From a virus (lineage: Duplodnaviria; Heunggongvirae; Uroviricota; Caudoviricetes), in the IMG/VR virus record IMGVR_UViG_2778261069_000010: a DNA stretch of 8,747 nucleotides, one strand, 5' to 3'. Of this stretch, positions 1-8,747 are shown in pieces. The notes under the pieces were generated by a model. The model ran no database searches. It saw only the letters and a program-made list of their open reading frames with translations, and was not told where the DNA came from. Made by a program: the position numbers and the translations under genes. Numbering within the stretch: the first letter of the stretch is position 1; each line of letters begins with the position of its first letter.

Positions 1-369
1 GTGAAGGCTAATGAAACAACCGAAGCAATATTGATTATCGCAGGACTTTGGATGATAAAAAAAGTCAATTACATTTCTATTGAGATATTCAATGAAACAT
101 TCGACAACTTACGTTCTCGAGTGGAGTCCGCTTTCGATAAGTATTTAAAGTTTGAAGAAAATAAAGAAATCAAAGATAATGCAGATAGTATTAAGAGTAG
201 CATTACAGGTTTGATTGATAAAGCTAAAAAAAGGATGAGAACTGTTAAATATCTCGCATCAGCCATGTTTTATGGAGGCCTTATTTACGTTGGATATAAA
301 CAGTTCCCAGTCTTTTTTGAAAAATCGGCAGTAAATCTATTTTATTTTTTATGCCATACTATAAGCTAA
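1..369 (+). CDS. Hypothetical protein, probably 5'-partial (frame open to window edge); AT-rich moron-like gene convergent with Q
   Basis: At least 122 codons stay open in markedly AT-rich DNA, where stop codons are frequent by chance. The stop at 367-369 overlaps the 3' end of Q by 21 bp. The product has hydrophobic stretches (AILIIAGLWMI, YLASAMFYGGLIYVGY) between K/E-rich segments. No family recognised. Confidence 0.45.
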   Translation: MKANETTEAILIIAGLWMIKKVNYISIEIFNETFDNLRSRVESAFDKYLKFEENKEIKDNADSIKSSITGLIDKAKKRMRTVKYLASAMFYGGLIYVGYKQFPVFFEKSAVNLFYFLCHTIS

Positions 370-705
370 CATTGCTAAACAGCCGTCAACAAACCCCATG
401 GCAGTCTGCAATTCCTTCCTAATTGTGCCATCTGAACATCTTCTCTTCTTGGCAATAGTGCGTAATGAGATACCAATAACAAAGTGAGCTATGAGCAGCT
501 CATATTCCTCTGGTTTATACTTTCGCAACCGAGCCACACAACCGTCTATCATGATGCCTTCATCATCATCACACTGGAGACGTGACTTTTTACCGTGTGG
601 TAAAAGTCCCTTGAAACCAGCCGCTATCGGCTGCCAGTCCACACCACTATTTTCTGCTGCAGCCCATGCTCCCCAGCGGTCCAATACTTCATACATATCA
701 CGCAT
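349..705 (-). CDS. Q: Phage late-gene antitermination protein Q (Q family as found in E. coli lambdoid prophages, QuuD/QuuQ-like)
   Basis: Product has the LDRWGAWAA...GFKG...DDD...C.ARL pattern I recall for prophage Q antiterminators. ATG at 705 is preceded by GGAGAAAG (6-nt spacer); the track start at 720 is a TTG. Position at the distal end of the nin-like region is as expected. Confidence 0.8.
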   Translation of the reverse strand: MRDMYEVLDRWGAWAAAENSGVDWQPIAAGFKGLLPHGKKSRLQCDDDEGIMIDGCVARLRKYKPEEYELLIAHFVIGISLRTIAKKRRCSDGTIRKELQTAMGFVDGCLAMLAYSMA

Positions 706-722
706 CAACTTTCTCCACAAAA

Positions 723-4582: not shown

Positions 4583-4815
4583 GCAGCACCTCCGAGATGC
4601 TTCATGTTTTTTCCGGAGCGAAAGGCTATAAGCGGCATACTGACGCGGTAATTACGGCCCAGCGGTTCACAAATCACTTTCTGACATTCACGGTCAACCA
4701 GGCTAACACGTAGAACATGCCCTGCAGGCGTGGTGTACCACTGCCCAACTGTAGGAATTGATGTTTTTTTACGCTGAAGTAAACGGCGAATATTGAGGCT
4801 CAACGGATTAAGCAT
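4579..4815 (-). CDS. Small hypothetical protein, DUF4222-like
   Basis: 78-codon ORF. ATG at 4815 is preceded by GGAGGG (7-nt spacer) and overlaps the upstream stop by 8 nt. The W-Y...G..L.V.....C........Y pattern resembles small DUF4222 prophage proteins; low certainty. Confidence 0.45.
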   Translation of the reverse strand: MLNPLSLNIRRLLQRKKTSIPTVGQWYTTPAGHVLRVSLVDRECQKVICEPLGRNYRVSMPLIAFRSGKNMKHLGGAA

Positions 4816-5644
4816 GACGATGCCCTCCGCTGATATTCAGGAGACGGTGAATATGAAAATTAGCCTTATCCACCAAACGGATACGTTCAGCCTGCAAGTT
4901 AAGAAGGGTTTCTACCAGAACCTGATGCGCCTGCGGATCCGAAAGAGTTACCTTGCGCAGAGCACGTAGTGCAGTTGTTACATAACTGAGTTTATGTAAG
5001 TCTTCATCATTCAGACGAGTGAGGGCTGGGACAGTAGCCATGATGGCAGCCTCCTTGATCGGTGAAATACTTCCACCACCGGAAACGCCAATTTCGCTGG
5101 TGGTGAACTGAACGGGGTTGGCGTAACCGGTGATCAAGGAAACCGGCGCATCTTTCGATGCCCCCGCCCAGCCCACCATAACTTTGATGTGAGCAAATGC
5201 GGACGATAAAAAAGACGCTGGCGCGTCATATATCGCCTTGATCAATTCCAGGACGCCAATCCCGGCACCCGCTTTATAAGGTGCCTGAACAGTGTAACGT
5301 CCCGGAATGGCAGAATCAATGTGCTGGTGGTCCTTCACACTCAACAAAATCACGCCTGAATTTCCACAAAGGACTAAAGCACTCATGCGGGTAGTCTTTG
5401 CGAAGATAGATAACGCGCTGTGTTTCTGGCTCCCAACGAATAACATGAACATAAAGTCCTCTTCCGTCACGAAACCAGCGGTTAAGTTCCTGCACAACTC
5501 GCCCCCCACAGTCAGGTAAAGTTCTCTGTGGTTACTTACAGCCAGGTGATTTGGTAATCTGCATTCATGCCGTAACAACAGGTGTTCAGCGACGCTGACC
5601 ACCAGCTGTTGCGACAAACGGTTATTTGCCGTTAAACTGTTCAT
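4808..5644 (-). CDS. Hypothetical early-operon protein (278 aa), function unknown
   Basis: Long ORF with ATGA start/stop overlap to the upstream gene and GGAGA upstream. Normal GC content. No Walker A motif; no family recognised by eye. Confidence 0.55.
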   Translation of the reverse strand: MNSLTANNRLSQQLVVSVAEHLLLRHECRLPNHLAVSNHRELYLTVGGELCRNLTAGFVTEEDFMFMLFVGSQKHSALSIFAKTTRMSALVLCGNSGVILLSVKDHQHIDSAIPGRYTVQAPYKAGAGIGVLELIKAIYDAPASFLSSAFAHIKVMVGWAGASKDAPVSLITGYANPVQFTTSEIGVSGGGSISPIKEAAIMATVPALTRLNDEDLHKLSYVTTALRALRKVTLSDPQAHQVLVETLLNLQAERIRLVDKANFHIHRLLNISGGHRHA

Positions 5645-6526: not shown

Positions 6527-7201
6527 ATGAAAACAGTCCATGACATCCGGCGGTCTAACGCCAGAAAACTGAGAGATGGTGTTGGCGGGAATTCTTCCTT
6601 TGCCACCATGATTGATCGCGAGCCAACCCAGACCAGCAGGTTTATGGGAGATGGTGCAACTAAAAATATCGGTGACAGCATGGCACGGCACATCGAAAAA
6701 TGTTTCGACCTGCCTGTCGGATGGCTTGATCAAGAACACCAGACAACGAACATCACAAAAAAACCTGATGTTTCAATCACTAACAAACAAATAACGTTAG
6801 TCCCTGTCATATCATGGGTACAGGCCGGAGCATGGAAAGAAGTTGGCTATTCTGAGGTTGATTTGAGCACAGCAGAAACTTATCCCTGCCCTGTACCCTG
6901 TGGCGAAATGACTTATATCTTGCGGGTGATTGGTGATTCAATGATTGATGAATACCGCCCGGGAGATATGATTTTTGTTGATCCTGAAGTACCTGCCTGC
7001 CACGGTGACGACGTTATTGCATTGATGCACGATACAGGTGAAACCACCTTTAAAAGGTTGATAGAAGACGGAACACAACGTTATCTCAAAGCATTAAACC
7101 CAAACTGGCCAGAGCCTTACATTAAGATCAACGGTAATTGTTCCATAATTGGTACTGTGATTTTCTCAGGAAAACCAAGGAGATACCATATTAAAGCCTA
7201 A
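6527..7201 (+). CDS. cI: CI-type phage repressor (HTH N-domain, S24 LexA-like autopeptidase C-domain), P22 C2 / lambda CI-like
   Basis: C-domain matches by eye: ISWVQAG (Ala-Gly cleavage site), GDSM (catalytic Ser), DMIFVDPE, TTFKRL (catalytic Lys), LNPNWP, NGNCSIIGTVI. These parallel P22 C2 (ISWVSAGQW, GDSM, ILVDPE, TFKKL, LNPQYP, NGNCKIIGVV). Confidence 0.9.
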   Translation: MKTVHDIRRSNARKLRDGVGGNSSFATMIDREPTQTSRFMGDGATKNIGDSMARHIEKCFDLPVGWLDQEHQTTNITKKPDVSITNKQITLVPVISWVQAGAWKEVGYSEVDLSTAETYPCPVPCGEMTYILRVIGDSMIDEYRPGDMIFVDPEVPACHGDDVIALMHDTGETTFKRLIEDGTQRYLKALNPNWPEPYIKINGNCSIIGTVIFSGKPRRYHIKA

Positions 7202-7213
7202 TCAATATTTATG

Positions 7214-7236
7214 AACCTGCTTCGGCAGGTTTTTTT
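7214..7236 (+). terminator. Rho-independent terminator downstream of cI
   Basis: Stem AACCTGC / GCAGGTT with a TTCG tetraloop, followed by a T-run (7230-7236), 13 nt after the cI stop. Confidence 0.7.
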
Positions 7237-7240
7237 ATAC

Positions 7241-7268
7241 TTGACAATGTACCCTTGAGATACATAAT
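7241..7268 (+). promoter_or_regulatory. pL-like sigma70 promoter with overlapping operator repeats (OL-like)
   Basis: -35 TTGACA (7241-7246), 16-bp spacer, -10 CATAAT (7263-7268). Two copies of AATGTACCC (7246-7254 and 7265-7273, 19-bp period) overlap the spacer and -10, as expected for repressor operators. Confidence 0.55.
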
Positions 7269-7376
7269 GTACCCAGATGAAACAGCGAACAGGCAGGATG
7301 CCCACGAAGTAGCCGCCCGGGGCATATGAAGACCGGGATGATTCGTTAGCAACAAAAAAGCGCCGTACCGGACACT

Positions 7377-7389
7377 TCGCTCTTTAACA
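7377..7389 (+). promoter_or_regulatory. boxA-like antitermination element (rrn/nut type) in the pL leader
   Basis: CGCTCTTTAACAA closely matches the rrn boxA consensus GCTCTTTAACAA and lambda nut boxA CGCTCTTA. It lies about 100 nt downstream of the predicted pL start. No clear boxB hairpin was identified by eye. Confidence 0.45.
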
Positions 7390-7435
7390 ATCTGATCCCC
7401 ATCAACAAGTAATTGATAACTTGAGGAAGTGTGAA

Positions 7436-7678
7436 ATGCACAAAACAGAACCAAAAATCGTCGCGCCAGGCTACACAGATGAGGAAATTTACGAGTGGAT
7501 GACAAAGAAGCTGGCTGCTATAAACCAGCTTCGTGAAGTGCAGTCTTATCGTCAGGAAACAATAGACTCCTTAAAAAAAACTAGATCAGGAGATCACATC
7601 TTTATCGCAAGAATCTACTCTAGATATTGTTCATACAAATTAGGATCCCATTCTTTTTCGTCAAAGTTATCAAAGTGA
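7436..7678 (+). CDS. Small hypothetical ORF, first ORF of the pL transcript; 3' part runs into the AT-rich island and may be truncated or fused
   Basis: ATG at 7436 is preceded by GAGGAAG (6-nt spacer). The first ~45 codons are in normal-GC DNA; the remainder lies in AT-rich DNA and overlaps the 3' end of the convergent gene 7615-8049. Not arginine-rich, so not N-like. Confidence 0.3.
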   Translation: MHKTEPKIVAPGYTDEEIYEWMTKKLAAINQLREVQSYRQETIDSLKKTRSGDHIFIARIYSRYCSYKLGSHSFSSKLSK

Positions 7679-8049
7679 TAAATTTGAGATCTCCAGTCTA
7701 AATTATCTAAAAAATCCTTAGCTCTTTTACTCATTTTATCAAACGTCAATTCATCCTGAATAGAAAGAATAAGATCATCAAACTCCATTTCATTAATTTT
7801 TTTTGGTGTCCAATGATGTTTCATAAGAATAAGGTGAATCAACGCATTTTTCCCTTTCAATTGATTATAGGGTGTGCTGAATTTCTTTCTATGCTCATAT
7901 AGTACAAGATCAAGCAAAGTCAGGAATGCGGCTCTTGATTCAACCTTAACTTTATCGATTGTTTGAACTATTCCACTAGTATTAATACCACGACACTTTC
8001 CAACATTTTCACAGTGGGATGCATACAGGTCACGTATATAAACAGACAT
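7615..8049 (-). CDS. Hypothetical protein (144 aa) in an AT-rich island, antisense to the pL operon; candidate accessory/exclusion gene
   Basis: ATG at 8049 is preceded by AAGGAAAAG. Composition is sharply AT-rich from about 7566 to 8050. No family recognised. The frame remains open upstream to 8313 in GC-rich DNA, but the RBS and composition favour the 8049 start. Confidence 0.55.
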   Translation of the reverse strand: MSVYIRDLYASHCENVGKCRGINTSGIVQTIDKVKVESRAAFLTLLDLVLYEHRKKFSTPYNQLKGKNALIHLILMKHHWTPKKINEMEFDDLILSIQDELTFDKMSKRAKDFLDNLDWRSQIYHFDNFDEKEWDPNLYEQYLE

Positions 8050-8065
8050 TCTCTTTTCCTTTTGC

Positions 8066-8112
8066 GTTGTTGGGGATACCCAGATTAACCGAATCCTTGT
8101 TGTTGGGGAATA
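8066..8112. repeat. Two direct repeats GTTGTTGGGGA (8066-8076, 8102-8112), 36-bp period, immediately upstream of the start of the 7615-8049 gene
   Basis: Exact 11-bp repeat with similar flanks (gttgttggggataccc / gttgttggggaataacc). Function unknown. Confidence 0.4.
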
Positions 8113-8335
8113 ACCAGGTCCACCTCGCCTGATGTGGCTAAAAGCAGGCACATAACAGCTAAGTATTTTCAACCAGAGAGAATCCTTAGCGTTGTGGTGA
8201 ATGCGGCTCAGCGCACGCGGGTTAAGGTTGAGGCTGACAGTCGACCTTCTGTGGATACCCACCCGCCTAGTGTGCAACCTTCGCCAGGCACCGGGAGGCA
8301 CCCGGCACCACAACTTTATGCTGTGTGTAGTCCTG

Positions 8336-8383
8336 GCGGTACCAGCTTGTACCCTTGCTTCCGGCTGGTACCGCTCTTTTTAC
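8336..8383 (+). terminator. Strong stem-loop followed by a U-tract: candidate tL-type intrinsic terminator (or structured RNA element)
   Basis: Perfect 11-bp inverted repeat GCGGTACCAGC (8336-8346) / GCTGGTACCGC (8364-8374) with a 17-nt loop, followed by TCTTTTTAC. The loop contains TTGTACCC, the operator-like motif. Confidence 0.45.
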
Positions 8384-8517
8384 AAAACAGAGAAGAGCAT
8401 CACCGGACGACGGGCTCATAACCCAATCCATCCGGGCGGCTGCCACCACAGGTGTTCTTCTCTGTTTTGTGGAGAAACTAATCGGCCTTGCAGGGCCGAT
8501 ATGATGAGGAGCAGCAA

Positions 8518-8747
8518 AATGGCTAGCGAACGCAGTACTGATGTGCAGGCATTTATCGGGGAGCTGGACGGCGGCGTATTTGAAACCAAAATCGGCGCAG
8601 TTCTCAGTGAAGTCGCTTCAGGTGTGATGAACACGAAAACCAAAGGTAAGGTCTCACTCAACCTGGAAATCGAACCATTTGATGAGAACCGTGTGAAAAT
8701 CAAACACAAACTCTCATATGTTCGCCCGACTAACCGCGGGAAAATTT
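8518..8747 (+). CDS. Hypothetical early-left operon protein, 3'-partial (runs off window end)
   Basis: ATG at 8518 is preceded by GAGGAG (7-nt spacer). The frame is open for 76 codons to the window edge (MASERSTDVQAFIGELDGGVFETKIGAVLSEVASGVMNTKTKGKVSLNLEIEPFDENRVKIKHKLSYVRPTNRGKI). Not in the ORF track because it has no stop in the window. No family recognised. Confidence 0.6.

Follow-up and report, generated by a model that had tools for sequence, protein, structure and literature searches.

A mobile two-gene antisense cassette in the pL operon of lambdoid prophages, a candidate prophage defence pair

The locus and its setting

The DNA analysed here (the window) is a stretch of 8,747 nucleotides from an SfV/SfIV/CPS-53-like lambdoid prophage and covers its immunity and early region. 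The rightward operon lies on the minus strand and includes a cro-like YdaS gene, ymfL, replication genes, RusA, KilA-N, DUF968 and Q. The repressor gene, the pL promoter and the locus under study are found at the following positions:

6527-7201, plus strand: cI, an S24-type repressor gene whose product matches Pfam Peptidase_S24
7213-7232, plus strand: intrinsic terminator after cI, detected by terminator scan
7241-7268, plus strand: pL-type promoter, TTGACA and CATAAT with a 16-nt spacer (11 of 12 consensus positions)
7357-7378, minus strand: second terminator-like hairpin (terminator scan), just before the pL leader and promoter
7379-7390, plus strand: rrn-type boxA, GCTCTTTAACAA, an exact match in the pL leader
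7414-8065: exchangeable cassette, GC 0.351, swapped for other DNA in phage PhiR29_1 (BLAST boundaries 7413 and 8066)
7436-7678, plus strand: small coiled-coil gene (PHROG 1744), the first ORF of the pL transcript; 80 aa here, frameshifted
7507-7532, minus strand: terminator-like hairpin for the large gene (terminator scan), inside the small-ORF coding sequence
7573-7580, plus strand: A8 homopolymer, A7 in relatives; a single indel at 7573 in the SfIV alignment
7615-8049, minus strand: large gene of the ECs1072 family (NF033230 and phrog_5286), 144 aa, ATG start, antisense to the pL operon
8050-8160: gap from the large-gene start to the STnc100-like RNA; the ribosome-binding site of the large gene lies in it
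8161-8383, plus strand: STnc100-like structured RNA (RF02076, 46.2 bits, E 1.8e-8, full-length match)

To the right of the cassette lie yfdP (from 8519), yfdQ, yfdR and the remaining left operon.

An earlier note, made from the sequence alone, had placed an AT-rich gene in the pL operon beyond a boxA-containing leader, and the promoter and boxA listed above agree with that location. Phage Ayreon carries a promoter annotation at the position homologous to 7241-7268, and only 0.07 matches to the boxA sequence would be expected by chance with one mismatch allowed. The note also regarded the slot as one where an N gene is expected, a view that does not stand: N is reported to be absent from SfIV, SfV and SfII (PMC3851460), and no relative examined has an N gene annotated in the slot. 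An exact boxA (plus strand) in the pL leader, combined with the reported lack of N in this phage group, hints at Nus-factor-dependent antitermination independent of N. A paper on mEpimmI was discarded, as its subject is Nus-dependent phages of an unrelated group.

Two structured RNAs were detected in the rightward operon, a C4 antisense RNA (82 bits; 5096-5183, minus strand) and an isrK Hfq-binding RNA (64 bits; 5208-5284, minus strand). Both score above their Rfam gathering scores and both lie within a 278-aa ORF at 4808-5644. Together they are reminiscent of a P1/P7 immI-like or Gifsy IsrK-type module.

An exchangeable block in an accessory-gene hotspot

The AT-rich block described in the earlier note is readily recognised: the GC content of 7566-8050 is 0.324 against 0.484 for the whole window, and lies about 3 standard deviations below the mean of 485-nt windows (0.489, sd 0.057). 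A presence/absence polymorphism with precise boundaries had been envisaged, and comparison with relatives reveals one. PhiR29_1 and the window have 7101-7413 and 8066-8747 in common, with different DNA between; SfV and Ayreon carry still other DNA in the same slot. Because the replaced block includes the small plus-strand ORF, the description of the locus as a single-gene island requires correction: a converging partner had been missed. In the PhiR29_1 comparison, the replaced block contains the ribosome-binding site and the start of the small ORF; the latter is not a backbone gene damaged by an insertion.

The segment with the large gene is present in 416 of 5426 complete E. coli genomes, and the segment with the small gene in 412 of the 5426 (around 8%, or about 1 in 13). 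Despite such frequent carriage, both proteins lack an assigned function and a recognised fold. Shigella, Salmonella and Klebsiella phages also carry the cassette. The large-gene allele of the window is rare: only 2 E. coli records reach at least 99% identity to it.

The cassette was found at three prophage junctions:

Context 1, directly after cI/pL: the window, SfIV, and loci L007, L012 and L013
Context 2, between a cII-like gene and O: Sakai prophage Sp4
Context 3, between Q and the holin gene: ST64B and Klebsiella phages

In all contexts the small gene is oriented with the lytic operon and the large gene against it.

The slot of the window also receives other genes. In related prophages with the same flanks, at least three other, and by one tally four, unrelated genes lie in it, all on the same antisense strand; other genes occupy it in loci L109-L112, and three E. 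coli prophages provide examples:

L109, 2469-2984, minus strand: 171-aa protein with a coiled coil and a zinc ribbon
L111, 2459-2971, minus strand: 170-aa protein with a signal peptide
L112, 2412-2891, minus strand: 159-aa protein with two transmembrane helices

PADLOC gave no matches for these alternative slot genes. Since unrelated antisense genes occupy the same place in related prophages, the slot is an accessory-gene hotspot, defined in SfV-like prophages from the pL leader to the STnc100-like RNA, and several uncharacterised genes reside there. The authors of the SfIV study mention ORF35 and ORF36 as possible subjects of virulence work only (PMC3851460).

Of the properties expected of a moron, patchy presence in collinear relatives, sharp boundaries and atypical base composition are observed. 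Along with the frequency in E. coli, the hotspot and the two other junctions, they uphold the accessory-gene (moron) reading advanced in the earlier note. That the island is a mobile two-gene antisense accessory cassette of prophages is a well supported structural conclusion. The cassette is a catalogued accessory unit, and it is more structured than had been perceived. Comparable to lambda-type morons such as bor and lom, and to immunity-region exclusion genes such as rexAB, P22 sieB and BstA (PMC8585504), the cassette is AT-rich, patchy among similar phages and located beside the immunity region, and like bor it is oriented against the surrounding lytic operon. The cassette differs from all of them in that it has two converging genes instead of one, shows no homology to them, and has a soluble product rather than a membrane protein or lipoprotein.

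The STnc100-like RNA is the conserved right border of the slot: it shows 96-100% identity to SfIV and is conserved to the same degree among SfV-like prophages. Its score of 46.2 bits falls slightly below the RF02076 gathering score of 47, and the RNA ends in an intrinsic terminator (stem 8336-8346 / 8364-8374). In Q-holin contexts, STnc100 matches were also obtained at L011 (108 bits), L025 (86 bits) and L024 (65 bits); tRNA genes take the position of the RNA in L007 and L020, and ST64B gave no STnc100 match. In the window and in those Q-holin contexts that have an STnc100-type RNA, the large gene begins on the side of this RNA and points away from it.

Several minor observations concern this border. 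STnc100 and PasD RNAs usually adjoin Q genes (bioRxiv 10.64898/2026.05.13.724894); the STnc100-like RNA of the window precedes yfdP in the early-left operon. The NCBI annotation pipeline marks 8161-8383 as a 'frameshifted hypothetical protein'. Between the STnc100-like terminator and yfdP lies an 18-bp inverted repeat (8382-8399 / 8453-8470, 94% complementary, with a 53-nt loop), and the plus-strand fold of 8050-8520 has a z-score of -5.1.

The two genes and their conserved pairing

The earlier note described the large gene as an antisense ORF of 144 aa with its own Shine-Dalgarno sequence, and rightly so: AAGGAAAAGAG, a ribosome-binding site of the AAGGA type, precedes its ATG. The statement that the protein belongs to no recognisable family has, however, to be abandoned. 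It matches NCBIfam NF033230, 'ECs1072 family phage-associated protein', with 161.5 bits (curated cutoff, 70 bits; residues 5-143 against profile positions 3-141 of 142) and PHROG 5286 with an E value of 5.8e-67 (residues 1-143 against 1-143 of 144), and is therefore a full-length member of both families. Homologues from Sakai, ST64B, L007 and L012 also score above the NF033230 cutoff, and an identical 144-aa protein is on record from Escherichia albertii. The window allele has only 71-72% identity to the common SfIV-type allele of the family. Both families are purely descriptive: they have no assigned function, and neither records the converging partner or the antisense placement. A literature search on ECs1072 and the family identifiers yielded only one microarray table entry.

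Purifying selection acts on the large gene, whose dN/dS is 0.20 in the comparison with the SfIV allele; among the other five reading frames, three give values of 0.5-2.7 and one antisense frame gives 0.29. The family comprises 67 clusters at 50% identity among 1.84 billion representative proteins, most of them around 145-155 aa and aligned end to end. An AlphaFold2 model built with that alignment is all-helical and confident (pLDDT 92.6, pTM 0.86); the first model, built from 4 sequences, had a pLDDT of 45 and was unusable. The dN/dS value, the end-to-end clusters and the confident model together indicate that the large ORF is a true gene.

Comparison of the model with solved structures in the PDB and with predicted viral structures in BFVD disclosed no similar fold. 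Pfam contained no domain for either window protein, and a search of Pfam, PADLOC and NCBIfam with both proteins plus 50 family members returned nothing beyond the two descriptive families. PADLOC-DB v2 gave 0 hits for both window proteins and chance-level hits only among the 50 family members. A profile of the large family produced a single chance match to myoglobin (E 0.46) among sequences of solved structures, and a scan of the genome contigs with the window protein found no relative. The large protein has a pI of 6.1 and a GRAVY of -0.55. Transmembrane segments, as in SieA, SieB, Imm or gp15, were not detected: the maximum Kyte-Doolittle hydropathy over 19 residues is 0.86, and the model is all-helical. 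As the protein is soluble, a membrane mechanism of the Sie type is unlikely.

Assignment of the large protein to the HEPN RNases (Tha-like or HEPN toxins) was also considered, on the basis of weak Foldseek matches and a K/R-x4-H pattern, and was rejected: the arginine of the Rx4-6H motif is not conserved, and the conserved motif together with the HEPN helical fold was not found. The family alignments are too diverse for pattern scans. Four residues (H53, R54, H72 and W80) are near-invariant in most members; they are missing in Sakai ECs1072, so no conserved active site can be claimed.

Divergence is unevenly distributed along the cassette and its border. Against the SfIV allele, the large gene has 68-88% DNA identity (dS 0.83), the small gene about 91% and the right flank 96-100%. 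That the large gene is far more diverged than the right flank suggests, on the sequence comparison, allele exchange or replacement within a conserved frame.

The small gene has a GAGGAAG Shine-Dalgarno sequence upstream of its ATG. Its native product, MHKTEPKIVAPGYTDEEIYEWM...DIVHTN in SfIV, E. coli C4 and TW14425, has 68 aa, with the stop codon TAG at the equivalent of 7641-7643, and intact copies are present at L005 and L006. In the window, an extra A relative to SfIV and E. coli C4 shifts the frame after residue 48; accordingly, phrog_1744 matches residues 1-48 in the window and 1-67 in the intact allele. The earlier note had attributed the altered 3' end of the small ORF to the insertion. 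The cause is instead this one-base frameshift (A8 for A7), and the native overlap with the large gene amounts to 29 nt, the native stop lying that far inside the large-gene 3' end. Because the 80-aa product (P0106) is found on 5 contigs, A8 may be a real allele; the alternative is an assembly error at the homopolymer. A programmed frameshift at the A-run was discarded, as the run is confined to the SfIV-type lineage.

The small gene is also under purifying selection, with a dN/dS of 0.13 (range, 0.09-0.17; 0.09 outside the overlap). Its product has a pI of 5.0 and lacks an arginine-rich motif, and a profile of the small protein retrieved designed coiled coils only among sequences of solved structures.

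The two genes converge tail-to-tail with overlapping 3' ends, and the pair is found again in six or more diverged lineages at the three prophage junctions. Family members with 28-41% identity to the window protein (L007, L008/L009 and L013/L014) keep a homologous small ORF that converges on the large gene with overlapping 3' ends, and in the small ORF a coiled coil comes after the motif P..PG[YM]T.E[EQ]..W[ML]. ST64B and Klebsiella phage KPP5665-2 have the same pair, with the large gene unannotated, and the small converging ORF is present in 80 of 80 viral contigs of the ST64B/Klebsiella type. A weak homologue of the small gene, GGLSDVELAEWL..., lies beside Sakai ECs1072. In the P0044 subfamily, the converging coiled-coil ORF is a different one, likewise conserved, with the start MNVTTE... 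At L015, the canonical small partner was not found in the 365 nt of contig that follow the large gene. Co-transfer by itself might account for the close linkage of the two genes.

A side observation concerns Sakai Sp4 (L016), where the small-gene homologue is open over 169 aa (19114-19674, plus strand; PHROG 8304) and extends, in antisense, across most of ECs1072.

Hairpins comparable to that at 7507-7532 lie 27-85 nt beyond the large-gene stop codon in 8 of 10 scanned loci, and the small-gene codons in which they fall are not homologous. Compared with natural-sequence controls, the combined p value is 0.003 over ten loci (nine of the scanned ten, with L104 replacing L001); the window copy alone stands only at the 20th percentile of the controls and is unremarkable by itself. 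At the opposite end of the large gene, the region 8050-8160 contains the motif CATCAGGCG, common to distant loci, and the direct repeat GTTGTTGGGGA is found at 8066-8076 and 8099-8109. Neither a consensus scan nor cross-locus alignment located a convincing sigma-70 promoter upstream of 8049; hence, expression of the large gene in the lysogen is an assumption in what follows.

A possible defence function and its alternatives

The arrangement of the cassette recalls Tha/Ith of S. aureus phage 80alpha, a system whose tail/antisense layout balances defence and self-immunity (PMC11087260). Tha/Ith, too, is prophage-borne, lies beside the repressor and couples a larger protein to a small one from the other strand, so that transcription in the lysogenic state excludes that in the lytic state and vice versa (PMC11087260). 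Given the tail-to-tail layout, expression of the two cassette genes would be mutually exclusive as well, as shown for Tha/Ith. The details are different: in 80alpha the HEPN RNase Tha is transcribed together with cI, and the antisense gene, ith, has a promoter of its own (PMC11087260), whereas in the cassette it is the large gene that is antisense, converging on cI, and the small gene belongs to the lytic operon. The two systems are unrelated in sequence and in fold, and the function of the cassette is a proposal. Prophage defence with built-in self-immunity is also exemplified by BstA/aba (PMC8585504).

The cassette is a reasonable candidate for a new prophage defence pair. Our tentative interpretation, which we hold as possible and below even chance, is that the large gene may encode a cytoplasmic exclusion or abortive-infection factor expressed in the lysogen, and the small gene an early-lytic antagonist or antidote. 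The large gene would be transcribed as a separate unit, against the direction of the lytic early-left operon. In the lysogen, cI would shut pL and the large gene alone would be expressed, its product acting in the cytoplasm on a superinfecting phage, either by exclusion or by abortive infection. Upon induction or infection, transcription from pL would run head-on through the large gene and lower its expression. Simultaneously, pL would make the small protein, which would neutralise the large one, and the phage would thus avoid blocking itself. A microarray signal reported for the Sakai homologue in an uninduced culture (PMC2241611) is weakly consistent with expression in the lysogen. Similarity searches with PADLOC, Pfam, PDB and BFVD spoke neither for nor against the exclusion, abortive-infection or other defence function suggested in the earlier note.

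A broader formulation is somewhat more doubtful. The pair may be an unrecognised two-component prophage immunity system, made of an effector without known fold that would be produced in the lysogen and stop incoming phage, and a tail-to-tail antidote on the lytic strand. In it, pL, pR or late transcription would switch the effector off by collision and by the antidote, with the block moving between three regulatory junctions of enterobacterial lambdoid prophages. If the logic of Tha/Ith applies, a new protein family would be added to enterobacterial prophage immunity, and if the proposal is true, antisense coupling of effector and antidote would be a general design.

The existence of the cassette admits other explanations. 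One that we consider rather unlikely, yet deserving attention, is a unit of lysogenic conversion or host physiology (host regulation, stress response or virulence) to which the small pL gene is merely linked. The slot also holds proteins with a signal peptide or two transmembrane helices, the SfIV authors named ORF35 and ORF36 solely in connection with virulence (PMC3851460), and no defence homology was found, all of which would suit such a unit; the overlapping pairing, however, survives across the 28-41% identity range and three insertion sites, which is hard to understand for independent genes. A further alternative, to which we assign a low probability, reverses the polarity of the pair: the small protein would be an early lytic effector directed against the host, and the large protein of the lysogen would neutralise it, shielding the host from leaky pL and excluding superinfecting relatives that need the same small protein. 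Lambdoid phages often have host-directed genes near pL, and the small gene is always sense in an early or delayed-early operon. However, the small protein shows no detectable similarity to known host inhibitors, its only matches being compositional ones to coiled coils, and frameshifted small alleles persist together with an intact large gene, which shows that the lysogen can do without the small gene.

The same alleles bear on the idea of an addiction module akin to toxin-antitoxin systems, in which the large protein would be the toxin and the small one the antitoxin that stabilises the prophage. A mobile unit on a prophage, with one small and one larger protein, invites the idea, which appears very improbable nonetheless: the genes converge and are not co-transcribed, the small gene, placed behind a repressed pL, should be silent in the lysogen, searches matched no toxin or antitoxin family, and the combination of a frameshifted small gene and an intact large gene, seen in the window and in other contigs, would be lethal if an antitoxin were constantly needed. 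A type II toxin-antitoxin operon was specifically rejected given the converging genes, the lack of a Pfam domain and the tolerance of a frameshifted small gene. Finally, AT-rich DNA easily gives open frames and the slot corresponds to the position of lambda N, so one might suspect a spurious ORF or a decayed remnant of an N-type antiterminator region. The dN/dS of 0.20, the 67 clusters and the confident model refute a spurious ORF; a remnant of N would be on the wrong strand, in a phage group reported without N (PMC3851460), and we regard this last explanation as exceedingly improbable. An intact lambda N-type antiterminator was likewise discarded, the large gene being on the opposite strand with a product of pI 6.1, and the acidic product of the sense small ORF (pI 5.0) having no arginine-rich motif.

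Outside the cassette, a second AT-rich ORF (GC 32%) is found at 1-369 on the plus strand, opposite the late operon and just beyond Q (349-720, minus strand). Its site is of the Q-proximal antisense kind used by the ECs1072 cassette in ST64B and in Klebsiella phages.
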